Part shown: piece by piece, positions 1,321 to 11,877 of the stretch
Position numbering within the stretch: position 1 is the stretch's first letter
Layout of the letters: every line of letters begins with the position of its first letter
NCBI RefSeq assembly: GCF_013409045.1
Contig: NZ_JACCBT010000001.1
Location: forward strand, 6,960,669 to 6,984,668
Direction: 5' to 3'
Length of the DNA: 24,000 bases
DNA from: Actinomadura citrea
GTDB lineage: Bacteria > Actinomycetota > Actinomycetes > Streptosporangiales > Streptosporangiaceae
Made by a program: the position numbers and the translations under genes
The notes under the pieces: model-generated
The model's database searches: none
Told to the model about the DNA's origin: nothing
The model's input: the letters and a program-made list of their open reading frames with translations, nothing else

Positions 1321-2058
1321 ATGGGACGTGTGGACGGGAAGACCGCTCTGATCAGCGGCGGGGCCCGCGGCATCGGCGCGGCCAGTGCCCGGGCCCTGGC
1401 CGCCGAGGGCGCCAGGATCGTCATCGGCGACATCCTCGACGAGGAGGGCAAGGCCGTCGCGGACGAGCTCGGCGACGCGGGACGCTACGTGCACCTCGAC
1501 GTGACCAGCGAGGACGACTGGGCGGCCGCCGTCGAGACCACCGTCGCCGAGTTCGGCGCGCTGAACGTGCTGTTCAACAACGCGGGGATCGCCAACGGCG
1601 CGGCCATCAACCGTTTCAAGCCGGAGAAGTGGCGGCAGATCATCGACGTCAACCTCACCGGCCCGTTCCTCGGCATCCGCGCGGCCACCGACGCGCTGAT
1701 CGCCGCCGGGGGCGGTTCGATCATCAACAACTCCTCCATCGAGGGCCTTCGCGGCACCTCCTGGGCGCACGGCTACGTGGCCTCGAAGTGGGGGCTGCGG
1801 GGCCTGACCAAGTCGGTCGCCGTGGAGCTCGCCCCGCACGGCGTCCGGGTCAACTCGCTGCACCCCGGGCTGATCCGGACGCCGCTCACCGAGGGCATCC
1901 CCGACGACATGGTCCCGATCCCCCTCGGACGGCCCGGCCTGCCCGAGGACGTCGCCTCCTTCGTCGTCTTCCTCGCCAGCGACGAGTCGTCCTTCGCCAC
2001 CGGATCCGAGTTCGTCATCGACGGAGGGACCGTCCAGCAGATCCCCCACAAGGGCTGA
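1321..2058 (+). CDS. Classical short-chain dehydrogenase/reductase (3-alpha/20-beta-hydroxysteroid dehydrogenase / FabG-like), 245 aa
   Basis: ATG 1321 with GAAGGGA upstream. Cofactor motif TALISGGARGIG (TGxxxGxG), NNAG, catalytic Ser plus YVASK (YxxxK), and HPGLIRTP. Confidence 0.9.
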   Translation: MGRVDGKTALISGGARGIGAASARALAAEGARIVIGDILDEEGKAVADELGDAGRYVHLDVTSEDDWAAAVETTVAEFGALNVLFNNAGIANGAAINRFKPEKWRQIIDVNLTGPFLGIRAATDALIAAGGGSIINNSSIEGLRGTSWAHGYVASKWGLRGLTKSVAVELAPHGVRVNSLHPGLIRTPLTEGIPDDMVPIPLGRPGLPEDVASFVVFLASDESSFATGSEFVIDGGTVQQIPHKG

Positions 2059-2059
2059 C

Positions 2060-2080
2060 CCGGGGCGCGCGGCGCCCCGG
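2060..2080. terminator. GC-rich hairpin between convergent genes
   Basis: Perfect inverted repeat CCGGGGCGC-gcg-GCGCCCCGG, starting 2 nt after the SDR stop (2056-2058) and upstream of the convergent hydrolase stop (2135). There is no U-tract, so terminator function is inferred only. Confidence 0.45.
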
Positions 2081-2134
2081 CCGGACCTCGCACGACGCAT
2101 CACCGGCTCATCTGGCGCCGGACTCCATCGGGCT

Positions 2135-2833
2135 CTACACGCGCAGCAGGACCGGCCAGGTCAGCGGGCCGACGATCCCGTCGTCGTCGACGCGGCCCCA
2201 TCGCTGGACCGCCTTCACGGCCGCCTCGGTGGTGGCGTCGAACATGCCGTTGATCGAGACCTCGGAGTGGCTGCGCGCCAGCAGGAGACCCTGCACGGTC
2301 TGCACGTCCTCCCCGGTGGCTCCTCTGGCGAGCGTCGGGAGGTTCTTCACCATGTTCTCCGTCCAGTCGTCGTAAGCGGGCCGTCCGTAGCCGGCGATGA
2401 CGCCGGACGCGCGGACGCGGCGCTTCACCGCGTCATCGGTATTGGCCTCGATCGTCTGGAGGCGCCCGCCGCCGAGGACCTTCTCGACGACGCCGACATG
2501 GTCGATCGCGCCGACGCTGTTGGTGGCGCCCCAGTCGTAGAACACGATGTCGCCGGGCTTCGCCTGGTCGACGCTCGCGGTCGTCCCGCTGTGCCAGCTC
2601 CCGGCCTTCTGGAAGTCCTGCGCGTGCCACACGGTGTAGGCGCGGTCCCCGCCGGGCAGGACGGCGCCCGCGTTGCCGCTGTGCCGCGCCCAGTAGGTGA
2701 TGGCCATGTCGCACCAGGACGCCCGGAGGAACTCGTCGCCGTGCCGGGACGCGTACTCCCGGGTGATGGTGTTCGGCCGCCCGGACATCCCGAGCGACCC
2801 GCGGGCCTCGGCGACCATCTTCGCCGCGGTCAT
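2135..2833 (-). CDS. CHAP-domain peptidoglycan hydrolase with C-terminal PG_binding_1-like domain; no signal peptide (endolysin-like), 232 aa
   Basis: CHAP-type Cys/His context (SWCDMAITYW ... GAIDHVGVV ... TIEANT). C-terminal peptidoglycan-binding repeat (GATGEDVQTVQGLL...FDATTEAAVKAVQRWGRVDDDGIVGPLTWPVL). The N-terminus MTAAKMVAEARGSLGMSGRP is non-hydrophobic. ATG 2833 overlaps the TGA of the upstream small ORF (ATGA), and GAGGAGGG lies upstream. Confidence 0.85.
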   Translation of the reverse strand: MTAAKMVAEARGSLGMSGRPNTITREYASRHGDEFLRASWCDMAITYWARHSGNAGAVLPGGDRAYTVWHAQDFQKAGSWHSGTTASVDQAKPGDIVFYDWGATNSVGAIDHVGVVEKVLGGGRLQTIEANTDDAVKRRVRASGVIAGYGRPAYDDWTENMVKNLPTLARGATGEDVQTVQGLLLARSHSEVSINGMFDATTEAAVKAVQRWGRVDDDGIVGPLTWPVLLRV

Positions 2834-2994
2834 CGCTTCTCGCCCTCCTCGCGCGTCGGCGGACCGCGGAAGATCCCCTCACGGTCGGGCGGACCGTAGA
2901 GCCGTCCGAGGATCTCCTGCTCGTCGGGCTCGGTGGCGACGTGCACGTCCGGGTGGACGTCCACCTCGTCCATGTGCTCGATCTCCTGGTTCAT
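2830..2994 (-). CDS. Small acidic hypothetical protein (54 aa), translationally coupled to the CHAP hydrolase
   Basis: Internal ATG at 2994 of track ORF 2830-3120, preceded by a perfect AGGAGG (3000-3005 on minus) with a 5-nt spacer. Product: MNQEIEHMDEVDVHPDVHVATEPDEQEILGRLYGPPDREGIFRGPPTREEGEKR. Its stop overlaps the downstream ATG. The 42 codons upstream of this ATG are Arg-rich and have no RBS. Confidence 0.6.
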   Translation of the reverse strand: MNQEIEHMDEVDVHPDVHVATEPDEQEILGRLYGPPDREGIFRGPPTREEGEKR

Positions 2995-3499
2995 GCCGTC
3001 CTCCTGGTCGCGCACGCGCTTCCGGCTTCGCGGGCAGCCGCCGGCCGTGACCACGGTGACGCCGTCCTGGTGCCGGCCGTGCGGGCGTCGCTCGTCGCGG
3101 CCAGATTTCTGGAGGCGCATTGCCGAGACGGCGTACCGACGAAAGAATGATCACGCTCGGCAACGAGCCACTACAGAGAGTATGTCTCCCTGAATGCGGC
3201 GTTTCTCCAGCCGAACGGAAAGACCCTTGTCGCCCGCCCAGCAGTCCTTGCTCCTCTCCGGATTGTTCAGGGCCTTGCGTCACACCCGGCCCAGGAAGCA
3301 CCGCATGATGCAAGTTGTTTCGTCGCCCCAGGCCGGCCGGCGGGTTTTGAGAAACGGCTGTGCCTCCAGGGCCGGATGGGATTCAGCCTTCCTGTTTCCC
3401 GGCGGAGGGTGTTCGTCCGTCGGGCAGGCGGACGCCGGTCAGGGGCTCGAAGGCGTTCGCGGTCGCGCCCGGGCGCCGTCGACGCCTGAACGGCGCGCG

Positions 3500-3531
3500 A
3501 AAGGCAGGGCCCCTGTCAGGGCCCTGCCTTT
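3500..3531. terminator. Bidirectional-looking intrinsic terminator hairpin
   Basis: AAAGGCAGGGCCC-ctgtca-GGGCCCTGCCTTT: a 13-bp perfect stem with a 6-nt loop, flanked by an A-tract and a T-tract so either transcript ends in UUU. It begins 10 nt downstream of the stop (3541-3543) of the minus-strand mini-ORF. Confidence 0.7.
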
Positions 3532-3540
3532 CCTGCGGGG

Positions 3541-3705
3541 TCAGCGGTCGATCCACCATGAGATCAAGGTGATGGCCGCGGCGCCGCCCGCGGTGGCCGC
3601 GCCGTAGGCGAACCCGCGGACGGCGGCGAAAAGGGCGGCGTCCCGCAGGCGCCGGACCTTCCCGGCGCGCGCGGGGCGGCGCTCGGTCTGCGCGATGCGT
3701 TCCAT
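3541..3705 (-). CDS. Unlisted 54-aa membrane mini-protein (basic N-terminus plus one Gly/Ala-rich hydrophobic helix)
   Basis: Hand-translated and not in the ORF track, apparently because it is too short. ATG at 3705 is preceded by AGGAGGAGAGCA (RBS at about 3712-3717 on minus). Product: MERIAQTERRPARAGKVRRLRDAALFAAVRGFAYGAATAGGAAAITLISWWIDR, then TGA at 3541-3543 and the 3500-3531 terminator. Codons are GC3-rich. Confidence 0.55.
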   Translation of the reverse strand: MERIAQTERRPARAGKVRRLRDAALFAAVRGFAYGAATAGGAAAITLISWWIDR

Positions 3706-3768
3706 TGCTCTCCTCCTGGAGGTGATCGGCCGGACGTGGCCTGATGGAGGAAGCGTGCGCCGGGATGA

Positions 3769-3882
3769 TGTTCACCTGCGAGAGACTTCTGTTCATCCTG
3801 AGAAGCCGTCCGGGCGGGCAGGTCACCGGCTTCGCGCGCGCCGGAAGGCGAACGAACCTGAACACAACTGCCCGGGTGAACG
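3769..3882. promoter_or_regulatory. Four GTTCA-core repeats in the divergent promoter region between the mini-protein and the STAND gene
   Basis: Direct copies TGTTCACCTG (3769-3778) and TGTTCATCCTG (3790-3800) lie 21 nt apart. Inverted copies CCTGAACA (3857-3864, i.e. TGTTCAGG) and GGTGAACG (3875-3882, i.e. CGTTCACC) lie 18 nt apart. Binding function is inferred. Confidence 0.35.
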
Positions 3883-3906
3883 TCCAGGGTCCGGAGGAGG
3901 GCGTCG

Positions 3907-6792
3907 GTGGAGCGGATCGCACCCGAGAGGATCACGACCCGCCGCCAGTTCGTTGAACAGATGGGTCTGCTGTACGACCGCGGCGGCTGGAGCCATCACC
4001 GGCTCGCCCACAAGGCGGGCCTGAGCCCGGCTACCGTCCGCAAGGCCGTGAGCGACACCGCCGTGCTGCCGCGGGCCGACACGGTGAGGGCGCTCATGAA
4101 GGCCTTCCGCATGGACCCGGCGCCCTGGCTCGAAGCCCGCGGCCGCATCCGCGACAAGGAGAAGGGCCCGGAGAGGGCGGCCGTCTCGCCGCCCGCGCGG
4201 GAGGCCGCCGAGGAGCAGCCCCCGCCGGACGCGCCGCGCCATCTCGTCGGGGTGATCCCGAGAGGGGCCGACTGCTACCAGATACGTGACGTCCTGGCCC
4301 TGCTGGAGAAGGCGACGGCAGAGGCCGATGGAGCGGTTCCGCCCCGGGGCCGCGTGCTGACCGGGATGGGCGGGGTGGGCAAGACGCAGCTCGCCGCCGC
4401 CTACGCACGCGAGGTCTGGGACGCCGGACGGGTGCGGATGCTGCTGTGGGTGACGGCGTCGTCCCGTCCGGGGATCGTGGCCGGCTACGCCGAGGCCGCT
4501 GCGGCCCTGGGCCTGTCGGTCGCGACCGACGACCCGGAGCAGGCCGCGCGGCGGTTCCTGCAGTGGGCGTCCACGACCCGCGACACGTGGCTCATCGTCC
4601 TGGACGACATTCGGGAACCGGGCGACGTGCAGGGCTGGTGGCCGCCGGACCGGCCGTCGGGACAGGTGCTCGCCACGACCTGGCGCCGCGAGGCCGCCCT
4701 CGTCGAGCAGGGCCGGCGCCGGGTGAACGTCGGTCTGTTCACACCGGAAGAGGCACGGGACTATCTGACCGCGAAGTTCCGCGTCCATGAGATGACCGAC
4801 GATCCCGGCCAGATGGACGCGCTCGCCGAGGATCTGGGGTGGCTCCCCCTGGCGCTGGCGCAGGCGGCCGCCTACATGGTGGACCTCGGCCTGGACTGCG
4901 CGGGCTACCGCGAGCGGCTCGCCGACCGGCGCCGCACCCTGGCCGAGCTGGTGCCCGAGCCCGAACACCTCCCCGACGACCACGGCAAGGTCGTCGCGGC
5001 GGCGTGGTCGCTGTCGATCGAGCGCGCGGACCAGGCCCGCCCCGTGGGACTGGCGAGGCCGCTGCTGCAACTGTGCTCGGTGCTGAACCCGAACGGCATC
5101 CCCTCATCGGTGCTGACCAGCCCGCCCGCCCTGGGATACCTGACGTTCGCCGCTTCCGCCGGCGCGGCCGGCCGCGACACCGACGGCACCGACGGCACCG
5201 ACGTGTGGGACGGTCTGAGGGTCCTGCACCGGTTCAGCCTCCTCGACCACGACACGGCGGCCGGAGGCGCCGTCCGCGTCCACGCGCTCATCCAGCGCGC
5301 GACCCGCGAGACGCTCGGCGAGCAAGAGCGCCTGCGCACCGCGCACACGGCCGCCGACGCGCTCATGCACGTGTGGCCGCGCATCAAGTACGACCAGATC
5401 ACCAGCGTCCTGCGCACGAACGCGAACAGCCTGCACGAGGTCACCCACACGGACCTGTGGCGGCACACCGGCGACGGCGGCCGCGAGTGCGGCCATCCGG
5501 TGCTGTTCCGCGCGGCGCGAAGCCTGAGCGACACCGGCCAGGTCGAAGCGGCCGTCGGCGCCTACGACGAGCTCTTCCAGGCCGGCGACCGCATCCTCGG
5601 CCCCGAGCATCCGGACACCATGTCCGCACGCAGAGGCAGGGCCCACGCCCGGGGCGAAGCGGGCGACATCGCGGGCGCCATGGCCGAGTACGGGGAACTC
5701 CTGTCCGACCTCACCCGCACGCTCGGCCCCGAGCACCCGCGGACCTTCTCCGCCCGCAACGACCTCGCGACCCTCCGCCGCCGCGGCGGCGACGTCGCGG
5801 GCGCGATCGAAGAACTCGAAGAGCTGCTGGCCGAGCAGGAATGGATTCTCGGCGCCGACCACCCCGACGTCCTGGCCACCCGGAGGAACCTGGCGAACTC
5901 CCGCGGGGAGGCGGGCGACGCCGACGGCGCCGTGAACGCGTTCGAGAGCATCCTCGCCCACCAGGGGCGCCTGGCGAGGCCGGACGACCCCGACGACCTC
6001 CAGGCCATGCTGAGCGTCCGGGAGAGCCTGGCGAAATGGCGCGGTGACGCGGGCGACGCGGCGGGGGCGGCCGCCGCCTGCGAAGAACTCCTGGCCGACC
6101 GGGAACGGATCCAGGGGCCGGACCACCCCCAGACCCTGGCCGCCTGGAAGGACGCCCTCCACTGGCGGTGGCGCAGAGGGGACACCGAGAACCTCCTGGA
6201 GGAGTACGAGCGGCTCGTCGCCGCGCACGTGCGGATCCTGGGCGCCGACAATCCCGCCACCCTGGTCGTCAGCGGCATCCTCGCCCGCGTACGGGGAAAG
6301 AAGATCGACCCGGCGAGCGCGGTCGAGGATCTGGAGCGGCTCGTGGCCGACCACCTGCGCGTCCTCGGGCCCGACCATCCCGAGACCCTGCGCACCCGCG
6401 CCCAGCTGGCCTACTCCCGAGGCCAGGCCGGGGACGCGGTCAGCGCGGTCAGCGCCTACGAGGACCTTCTCGCCGACCACGAACGAATCCTGGGCCGCGA
6501 CCATCCCCAGACGTTGGCCACCCGCAACGGCCTCGGTCGCTGGCAGGCCGAATCAGGCGACGTGGTGGCGGCCGTCACCACCTTCGAGGAGGTCCTGGCC
6601 GACCGCTGGCGGGTGCTGGGCCGCAACCACGAGCACACCCAGAACACCCTCAAGAGCCTGGAACGATGGCGCCGCCGCCTGCAGCGCGAGTCCCAGGTCC
6701 AGCAACGGGACACCAAGCGCCGACGCACCAGGCATCGCAGCAAAGGACCCCGGGGCGGTCCTGAGTGGTCAGGACCGCCCGGGCACGAGTAG
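3907..6792 (+). CDS. STAND NTPase: N-terminal helix-turn-helix + NB-ARC ATPase + nine TPR-like repeats (961 aa)
   Basis: GTG 3907 preceded by GGAGGAGGG (3892-3900). HTH-like segment WSHHRLAHKAGLSPATVRKAVSD. Walker A GMGGVGKT (4363-4386), Walker B WLIVLDDI, and the NB-ARC GxP-type motif GWLPLALAQAA. Nine ~42-aa repeats of (I/V)LGP(D/E)HP.TL..R..LA...G.AGD..GA span about 5590-6660. Basic C-terminal tail. Confidence 0.9.
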   Translation: MERIAPERITTRRQFVEQMGLLYDRGGWSHHRLAHKAGLSPATVRKAVSDTAVLPRADTVRALMKAFRMDPAPWLEARGRIRDKEKGPERAAVSPPAREAAEEQPPPDAPRHLVGVIPRGADCYQIRDVLALLEKATAEADGAVPPRGRVLTGMGGVGKTQLAAAYAREVWDAGRVRMLLWVTASSRPGIVAGYAEAAAALGLSVATDDPEQAARRFLQWASTTRDTWLIVLDDIREPGDVQGWWPPDRPSGQVLATTWRREAALVEQGRRRVNVGLFTPEEARDYLTAKFRVHEMTDDPGQMDALAEDLGWLPLALAQAAAYMVDLGLDCAGYRERLADRRRTLAELVPEPEHLPDDHGKVVAAAWSLSIERADQARPVGLARPLLQLCSVLNPNGIPSSVLTSPPALGYLTFAASAGAAGRDTDGTDGTDVWDGLRVLHRFSLLDHDTAAGGAVRVHALIQRATRETLGEQERLRTAHTAADALMHVWPRIKYDQITSVLRTNANSLHEVTHTDLWRHTGDGGRECGHPVLFRAARSLSDTGQVEAAVGAYDELFQAGDRILGPEHPDTMSARRGRAHARGEAGDIAGAMAEYGELLSDLTRTLGPEHPRTFSARNDLATLRRRGGDVAGAIEELEELLAEQEWILGADHPDVLATRRNLANSRGEAGDADGAVNAFESILAHQGRLARPDDPDDLQAMLSVRESLAKWRGDAGDAAGAAAACEELLADRERIQGPDHPQTLAAWKDALHWRWRRGDTENLLEEYERLVAAHVRILGADNPATLVVSGILARVRGKKIDPASAVEDLERLVADHLRVLGPDHPETLRTRAQLAYSRGQAGDAVSAVSAYEDLLADHERILGRDHPQTLATRNGLGRWQAESGDVVAAVTTFEEVLADRWRVLGRNHEHTQNTLKSLERWRRRLQRESQVQQRDTKRRRTRHRSKGPRGGPEWSGPPGHE
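6753..6780. terminator. Strong hairpin at the convergent junction of the STAND and GH63 genes
   Basis: GGGCGGTCCTGA-gtgg-TCAGGACCGCCC: a 12-bp perfect stem with a 4-nt loop. It lies inside the last ~40 nt of the STAND ORF (stop 6790-6792) and 37 nt from the GH63 stop (6817-6819). No U-tract. Confidence 0.4.
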
Positions 6793-6816
6793 GCGGCGCG
6801 GTCGCCGCCCGGGACG

Positions 6817-11877
<5,061 letters not shown>

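Follow-up and report, generated by a model that had tools for sequence, protein, structure and literature searches.

What does an actinomycete STAND ATPase switch on when its N-terminus is a predicted DNA-binding domain? Filamentous actinomycetes have hugely expanded sets of NB-ARC/TPR proteins, and to our knowledge the output is known for almost none of them. We analysed a stretch of 24,000 nucleotides from the chromosome of Actinomadura citrea (hereafter the window; the genome, on one contig, has 8.99 Mb and 72% G+C), in which the gene at 3907–6792 encodes a protein that joins a helix-turn-helix (HTH) domain, an NB-ARC ATPase and tetratricopeptide repeats (TPR). We describe the domain architecture of this STAND protein, a genuine mini-gene head-to-head with its gene, a conserved pairing of such mini-genes with HTH-STAND genes, and a co-variation of repeats in the shared control region with the HTH subtype. 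With confidence somewhat better than even, we suggest that the two genes form a module in which the STAND protein is a transcription factor controlling the mini-gene, a member of what we call the WWITH family, and probably itself. The parts of the module are as follows.

3494–3537, minus strand: stem-loop with 19-nt arms, 89% complementary, and a 6-nt loop, a few bases past the mini-gene stop codon (inverted-repeat search)
3541–3705, minus strand: mini-protein gene, 54 aa, coding for a basic head, a hydrophobic stretch rich in Gly and Ala, and a C-terminus that contains WWI (ribosome-binding site, selection, family alignments)
3706–3906, no strand: shared 201-bp control region (GTTCR/YGAAC repeats, conservation)
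3907–6792, plus strand: HTH-NB-ARC-TPR STAND protein gene (open reading frame and translation, Pfam, AlphaFold2, Foldseek)
3907–4167, plus strand: predicted XRE/Cro-type five-helix HTH (residues 1–87), then a linker at 88–105 (Pfam, PHROG, AlphaFold2)
4240–5466, plus strand: NB-ARC, helical and winged-helix (DUF7779) parts, residues ~112–520 (motifs, Pfam, Foldseek)
5497–6741, plus strand: nine kinesin-light-chain-type TPR units, the presumed sensor, then a basic disordered tail (Pfam, spacing, PDB matches)

The STAND gene starts with GTG at 3907, has the ribosome-binding site (RBS) GGAGGAGGG 5 nt upstream and encodes 961 aa. Pfam recognises NB-ARC at residues 151–319 (28.3 bits versus a cut-off of 23.5) and, strongly, TPR_12 (112.8 bits) and TPR_10 (84.2 bits); DUF7779 at residues 383–474 scores slightly under its cut-off. 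Along the chain follow GMGGVGKT (Walker A, residue 153), LIVLDDI (Walker B, 229), TTWR (257), GWLPLAL (311) and VHA (458). An AlphaFold2 model built from an alignment of 40 homologues has a mean predicted local distance difference test score (pLDDT) of 87.1. Foldseek places its ATPase closest to Apaf-1 (1z6t, E 7.6e–9), with 3sfz, CED-4, the plant protein NRC3 and Avs3 also among the matches. With the Walker A, Walker B and GxP (ARC1) motifs in order and an Apaf-1/CED-4 fold, the protein belongs to the NB-ARC (AP-ATPase) clade. A pattern search recovered eight TPR units between residues 563 and 903, spaced by 42 aa except for one gap of 84 aa and one of 46 aa; a ninth (TLGPEHPRT, near residue 605) was read off the translation inside the 84-aa gap, and we therefore count nine. 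The repeats resemble kinesin light chain (KLC) TPRs and the TPRs of a Podospora NLR in Foldseek, and the PDB sequence search likewise returned KLC1/2 TPRs.

The N-terminal domain requires more argument. HTH_31 matches residues 24–73 (E 9e–5), but its 23.1 bits do not reach the curated cut-off of 27, which counts against a DNA-binding output. We kept the assignment because weaker matches to HTH_26, HTH_3 and a PHROG repressor fall on the same N-terminus and because AlphaFold2 models residues 12–86 as five helices in the XRE/Cro pattern (pLDDT 83–97), ahead of a disordered linker at 88–105. An XRE-type HTH is thus supported by the model despite the sub-threshold score. A preliminary description of this DNA, made from the letters alone, had read the protein as an HTH, an NB-ARC ATPase and nine ~42-aa TPR repeats. 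Pfam, motif positions, AlphaFold2 and Foldseek confirm that layout, and the comparison also backs its view that the output module is a DNA-binding domain. As for the profiles it had named, NB-ARC scored above the cut-off and TPR_10/TPR_12 strongly, but HTH_31 fell short.

GutR, AfsR and MalT are STAND ATPases with transcriptional output, and GutR of Bacillus subtilis is a glucitol-responsive activator. The A. citrea protein has the design of this kind of STAND transcription factor: DNA-binding domain, STAND ATPase and repeat sensor are fused in one chain. Pfam finds neither SARP/BTAD nor GerE domains on it, and neither AfsR nor MalT chains came up in the PDB sequence search (E ≤ 0.01). Its likeness to AfsR and MalT is one of design, not of family membership.

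The mini-gene has a GGAGGAG RBS ahead of its ATG. Compared with the counterpart in Actinomadura sp. DSM 109109 (the 80%-identity orthologue), codons 15–52 show a single replacement beside nine silent changes, and the head varies freely; at the codon level this indicates purifying selection on residues 15–52. Homologues were collected by tblastn first and then with a hidden Markov model (HMM) built from the genus alignment. They share a consensus of a basic head followed by RRLxRxAxxAAVRGAATAAGAAxIxLxxWWITH, one further residue and the stop; they measure 41–57 aa and mostly have an RBS, and across the family the head is variable and the C-terminus conserved. When 5.8 billion proteins were searched with the profile, ~80 clusters emerged, from Actinomadura, Spirillospora, Nonomuraea, Thermomonospora, Acrocarpospora, Herbidospora and Streptomyces, all of them ‘hypothetical’ and none with a Pfam domain. 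The family is patchy, since only 20 of 301 genomes and 13 of 90 genera in a GTDB family sample have a match, and some genomes hold several copies (five in G248). The RBS, the hairpin at the 3′ end, the purifying selection, the ~80 homologous clusters and the matches in the family sample together lead us to treat the mini-gene as real.

Judged from its sequence, the stem-loop at 3494–3537 is likely the terminator that closes the mini-gene transcription unit; it is absent from the list of a simple T-tract terminator scan. Scans for sigma-70-type promoters and T-tract terminators over 2000–7200 were uninformative in DNA of 72% G+C. The invariant Arg, the WW belt, the small-residue-rich hydrophobic stretch and the basic head of the mini-protein suggest a membrane-inserted or self-associating helix. 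The same genome has a weak second member of the family at 3,678,899–3,679,135 on the plus strand (locus L142, E 1.4e–8). Here the head-to-head neighbour is a LacI-type regulator gene in place of a STAND gene, and the encoded family member has its C-terminus extended and its helix more hydrophobic.

We then asked how regularly the mini-gene accompanies STAND genes, counting in samples with short flanks and in related genomes. In other Actinomadura species it lies upstream of and divergent from the homologue of our STAND protein (an NLR) at 12 of 24 loci, and all 12 of these homologues have an HTH-like N-terminus. Three genus loci at which the N-terminus is clearly not an HTH (L025, L029, L030) have no mini-gene. 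Farther away, at each of the four loci of distant family members that we inspected, a large divergent neighbour lies 0–240 bp from the mini-gene, with transposase, integrase or restriction-type genes nearby.

Nonomuraea mini locus: divergent partner is an NB-ARC/DUF7779/TPR protein
Thermomonospora mini locus: divergent partner is an HTH_31 + NB-ARC protein
Streptomyces mini locus: divergent partner is an NB-ARC protein
S. lutosisoli mini locus: divergent partner is a 1,210-aa protein with a weak TPR match only

In the family sample, 10 of 28 mini loci have an NB-ARC gene within 1.5 kb. Eleven of the other 18 have a divergent open reading frame (ORF) that encodes an XRE-like HTH followed by a P-loop. 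Over the whole sample, ~21 of 28 mini loci have a divergent HTH + P-loop partner. Two of these eleven partners (L143, L146) are NB-ARC proteins by Pfam or sequence match; the remainder have the Walker A sequence VLVGGSSTGKT, are not recognised as NB-ARC and, where scanned, match only AAA_16 weakly and TPR or helical repeats. Because the partners span NB-ARC and a second ATPase class, the mini-gene, as far as these loci show, tracks an HTH fused to a STAND-type ATPase generally and not one type of ATPase or sensor. The second class, found at loci L129–L139 (for instance L130:6322–9321, L139:6216–9557 and L135:843–5828), consists of proteins of at least 720 aa with an XRE-like HTH, the motif LPPYVRRxHD before the Walker A VLVGGSSTGKT, C-terminal TPR or helical repeats and a weak Pfam AAA_16 match; it is probably an undescribed STAND-like clade.

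The 201 bp between the two start codons are 91% identical to their counterpart in DSM 109109, versus ~84% for the adjoining DNA. Copies of GTTCR lie at 3769–3774 and 3790–3795 and inverse YGAAC copies at ~3849–3882, among them TGAACA at 3859–3864. Within 96 bp of this intergenic region there are three copies of TGTTCA, versus 13 in the whole 24-kb window. Candidate operator repeats thus stand 25–58 bp upstream of the STAND start codon. No Rfam match to a riboswitch or other known RNA was found at E ≤ 1 in 2800–3950 or anywhere in the window. Sorted by the HTH subtype of the STAND partner, the shared regions carry the following motifs.

Subtype A (this window, DSM 109109, G029 and Thermomonospora): GTTCR at 65–110 nt and YGAAC at 144–172 nt from the mini-gene ATG, positions that hold in 4/4 loci of two genera
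Subtype B (including three partners not recognised as NB-ARC, of which L136 is a second-class P-loop protein): TTTYCCGG, usually twice
Subtype C: TCCGGA-type palindromes in the shared region
Subtype D: palindrome GTGCCCGC..GCGGGCAC in the shared region

The intergenic motif appears to follow the HTH subtype and not the ATPase class; since the groups were defined by eye on few loci that are related and not independent, this co-variation is supportive, not proof. The preliminary description had named the divergent mini-gene as a likely target, and both the conserved HTH-STAND pairing and the repeats that co-vary with the HTH subtype back it there. The make-up of the motif groups is one of several points that weigh against a two-gene module. 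No mini-gene was detected at three genus loci of HTH type (L023, L026 and the truncated L033), a clear P-loop partner is missing at ~7 of the 28 mini loci in the family sample, and two NB-ARC genes are convergent or co-directional to the mini-gene instead of divergent. In the mini-protein, the best 19-residue hydropathy is 1.0–1.5, under the 1.6 usual for a membrane helix, and its AlphaFold2 model (two helices, pLDDT 63.6) is of such low confidence that we did not use it as evidence.

A STAND transcription factor of the GutR/AfsR/MalT design is the most economical reading of this locus, and for that reason we adopt the following mechanism, in which we infer DNA binding, ligand gating, the direction of regulation and the membrane location and activity of the mini-protein. 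The TPR array would bind a ligand, and binding would lead to nucleotide exchange and oligomerisation of the NB-ARC module. Several HTH domains would thereby be gathered on the phased GTTCR/YGAAC repeats of the 201-bp region. Transcription of the mini-gene would change, and probably that of the STAND gene as well, via the repeats just upstream of it. The mini-protein, with its basic head and small-residue-rich hydrophobic helix, would be the output, probably at or in the membrane. The proposal gives this STAND subfamily testable handles in the form of a candidate target family (41–57 aa), a candidate subtype-specific operator and a simple reporter design. If the mini-protein is a membrane-active effector, it would represent a new output route for an NLR-like sensor; if it is a signalling partner, a micro-protein layer would be added to STAND regulation.

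The latter case leads to a different role for the mini-protein, that of a protein partner of the STAND protein more than a transcriptional target: a membrane tether, an anti-activator or a Trp-rich C-terminal peptide ligand read by the TPRs. There is precedent in MalT, which protein partners keep inactive. The STAND TPRs also resemble KLC TPRs solved with cargo peptides, including a tryptophan-acidic motif (6f9i, 6swu), and the variable head and conserved C-terminus recall the small precursors that accompany actinobacterial AP-ATPase/TPR proteins (PMC7159879). However, the partners differ in ATPase class (two) and in repeat type (several), and what the mini-gene follows is their HTH end; this points to DNA and not the sensor as the link. 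Moreover, no peptidase or maturase gene stands alongside the mini-gene in DSM 109109 or at the four distant loci, and a hydrophobic stretch that crossed the membrane would leave the C-terminus on the outer side, away from the TPRs. We therefore consider it rather unlikely that the mini-protein is mainly a partner. A partner or peptide-ligand role could also go together with transcriptional control of the mini-gene.

Could the module serve in defence? A conflict system would fit its patchy distribution, multiple copies, rapid divergence and the mobile-element genes nearby. A tentative extension of the two-gene module, to which we assign a low probability, is a transcription-coupled immunity or cell-death switch: the TPRs would sense a foreign protein, for example from a phage, the NB-ARC module would oligomerise, and the HTH domains would induce a glycine-zipper-like membrane peptide that depolarises or permeabilises the infected hyphal compartment. 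The ‘effector domain’ of such an NLR would be a promoter plus a separately encoded toxic micro-protein. PADLOC-DB 2.0, including its Avs models, gave no match for the STAND protein, the mini-protein or the neighbouring CHAP enzyme and acidic ORF described below, and on this ground we rejected membership in a known defence system. Among six partner proteins from other loci, five had no PADLOC match and the sixth matched only a generic TPR model. STAND clades also include non-immune regulators (PMC13581612).

What the module is not can be seen from its relatives and its surroundings. The STAND protein family is large, with more than 1,500 proteins at E ≤ 1e–20 among the candidates and with variable N-terminal domains. 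Among 103 other Actinomadura species genomes the closest match is 55% identical; the orthologue in DSM 109109 reaches 80%. Most homologues are named ‘tetratricopeptide repeat protein’ or ‘FxSxx-COOH system TPR protein’; for actinomycete NB-ARC/TPR proteins, database names are thus generic or, often wrongly, those of the FxSxx-COOH system. If the name were taken at its word, our STAND protein would be a component of such a peptide system, and it does pass the cut-off of the NCBIfam equivalog NF040586 (FxSxx_TPR), with 324.6 bits versus 300. However, it passes solely as the sum of three stretches (167 + 111 + 61 bits), and ~25 paralogous places in the same genome match this model. The true Fxs locus lies ~260–270 kb away, with a TPR protein of 542.7 bits (7,224,974) and an FxsB of 436.8 bits (7,234,637); this FxsB, the only one in the genome, adjoins a TPR protein other than ours, ~270 kb from the STAND gene. 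The C-terminus of the mini-protein is not of the FxSxx type either. As the score needs the three-stretch sum and the real Fxs locus is elsewhere, the FxSxx name would be an over-annotation here. We rejected membership, FxsA, FxsB and FxsC genes not being encoded with the STAND gene, and give a role in this system next to no probability.

Upstream, beyond the mini-gene, lies a second pair of genes.

2135–2833, minus strand: CHAP + PG_binding_1 enzyme (Pfam)
2830–2994, minus strand: 54-aa acidic ORF, the stop codon of which overlaps the start of the CHAP enzyme gene

The preliminary description had taken these for a pair of CHAP hydrolases, plausible targets of the STAND protein and part of a possible lysis or defence unit. 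The start of the CHAP gene overlaps the stop of the acidic ORF, so the ‘pair’ is one CHAP + PG_binding_1 enzyme plus an acidic ORF, not two hydrolases. The idea of a sensor-controlled programmed-lysis or abortive unit, with the mini-protein as holin and a signal-less CHAP enzyme, has some appeal. All three genes adjoin both here and in the species-level relative DSM 109109, and the CHAP enzyme matches phrog_21825, a phage endolysin family, over its full length (E 6e–45), is 35–48% identical to Streptomyces phage endolysins and has no obvious signal peptide.

However, 95 of 104 Actinomadura genomes carry the CHAP enzyme, often with 2–6 matches per genome and usually in a core context. At all 20 other CHAP loci that we examined (L074–L093) the acidic ORF accompanies it; tblastn at E ≤ 1e–5 detected no mini-gene beside the pair, and within 8 kb there was no NB-ARC homologue. 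Sixteen of the 20 loci share one chromosomal context: a PspC-domain kinase, a LuxR regulator, TetR, PhoD, the CHAP pair, xanthine-dehydrogenase-like subunits, CoxG, a methyltransferase and a TagF-like enzyme. We rejected a mobile or conjugative element as an explanation of this context, as the gene content is core chromosomal. A second CHAP copy, 84% identical, is found in the A. citrea genome at position 8,179,723 (8.18 Mb). The copy in the window is a paralogue next to genes for a short-chain dehydrogenase/reductase and a diaminopimelate-dehydrogenase-like protein, a position common to the genomes G027, G060 and G061; the DNA identity of the pair (84–85%) is lower than that of the flanks (92–94%).

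The slot that holds the STAND gene varies. G061 has flanks of 92–93% DNA identity, and in place of the 3.7-kb mini + STAND segment it carries 1.1 kb with a Methyltransf_19 gene; G060 carries a homologue of this gene in the syntenic slot and G027 two ROK genes. These slot genes (PF04672; L089:7706–8689 in G061 and L087:7931–8878 in G060) belong to a family that also adjoins the mini-gene at two unrelated loci (L135:6271–7248, L139:4395–5240), and Methyltransf_19 genes may mark a common variable-island gene pool. Conversely, the mini + STAND pairs at the four distant loci inspected have no CHAP gene nearby. The whole CHAP + mini + STAND arrangement is common only to DSM 109109, as is expected from the shared ancestry of two close species, and even there the gene that follows the STAND gene is a P450 gene, not the glycosidase gene found here.

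Finally, the hairpin and ~500 bp part the mini-gene from the CHAP pair. The interval at 2995–3499, between the hairpin and the RBS of the acidic ORF, contains no convincing ORF and is conserved up to 3361 in G027. With this gap, chromosomal surroundings and no mini-gene beside the CHAP pair at the 20 other loci, we also rejected a phage-type holin-endolysin cassette. The CHAP pair stands without NB-ARC neighbours elsewhere and its slot varies, so that the neighbourhood is not conserved for this part of the preliminary description, which had itself named that as grounds for refutation. The CHAP pair is not part of the STAND + mini-gene module, a common lysis unit is very unlikely, and a tempting link between the STAND gene and a neighbouring endolysin-like gene is corrected.

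On its other side, the STAND gene abuts at its 3′ end, on the opposite strand, a gene for an exported YgjK_N + MGH1-like (GH63-type) glycosidase (6817–8970, minus strand), the first of a sugar-utilisation gene set. GutR, MalT and AfsR control catabolic or biosynthetic genes, and an ordinary pathway-specific regulator of such a neighbouring metabolic operon, for example of the glycosidase and sugar-uptake genes, could be imagined. However, G061 keeps the glycosidase gene (93% DNA identity) without the STAND regulator, the P450 gene takes its place beside the DSM 109109 orthologue, and the neighbours of homologous pairs are unrelated and often transposases or an integrase. Such a regulator is scarcely credible. 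The glycosidase is 92–93% conserved in G061, independently of the STAND gene.

We thus return to the two-gene module. We found no description in the literature of the WWITH mini-family or of its pairing with HTH-STAND genes, although absence is not proof. HTH domains on bacterial NLR-like proteins have already been listed (PMC7159879; bioRxiv 10.1101/2022.07.19.500537). What is new here is the mini-family, paired with HTH-STAND genes in a two-gene module of filamentous actinomycetes not described before; STAND transcription factors were already known.

Among known systems, Avs/AVAST proteins share with our protein a STAND ATPase with a large repeat sensor and a patchy, multi-copy distribution, and Avs3 is among the fold matches. 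They differ in their output: the A. citrea protein has an HTH and no nuclease, protease or other killing domain, and it has no PADLOC match. Bell/NLR amyloid pairs likewise combine a small protein with an adjoining NB-ARC/TPR NLR in filamentous actinomycetes (Dyrka et al. 2020, bioRxiv 10.1101/2020.01.06.895854). However, the mini-proteins (41–57 aa) are too short for a Bell domain (~120–140 aa), and the N-terminus of the NLR is here a folded HTH. The best BLASTP alignment between the mini-protein and the STAND protein has E 0.97 and no common motif, which argues against amyloid templating; a Bell/BASS amyloid-signalling pair was rejected.

The FxSxx-COOH systems also associate an NB-ARC/TPR protein with a small protein whose body varies and whose C-terminal peptide is conserved (Haft and Basu 2011; Kaur et al. 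2020, PMC7159879). Here the C-terminal motif is WWITH-like, the N-terminal domain of the large protein is an HTH instead of TIR, and the adjoining genes include no radical SAM, metallopeptidase or vWA-MoxR gene.

Closer in design are AfsR and the large SARP regulators, in which an actinomycete DNA-binding domain is followed by NB-ARC/NOD and TPR and the output is transcriptional (PMC10936776; bioRxiv 10.64898/2026.09.02.748808). The DNA-binding domain of our protein is of the XRE type in place of SARP/BTAD, and there is no biosynthetic cluster nearby. GutR, AfsR and MalT have been named as non-immune STAND transcriptional regulators (PMC13581612; PMC10936776), and for GutR ligand-induced ATP binding and DNA binding were reported (Poon et al. 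2001, as cited in PMC13581612). Compared by design, GutR and the A. citrea protein have in common the N-terminal HTH, the AP-ATPase-type switch, the C-terminal TPRs and a regulator gene divergent from its target. The target of GutR is a catabolic operon, whereas the candidate target here is the gene of a 54-aa mini-protein, and the STAND family to which its putative regulator belongs is multi-copy, patchy, fast-diverging and often located near mobile-element genes.

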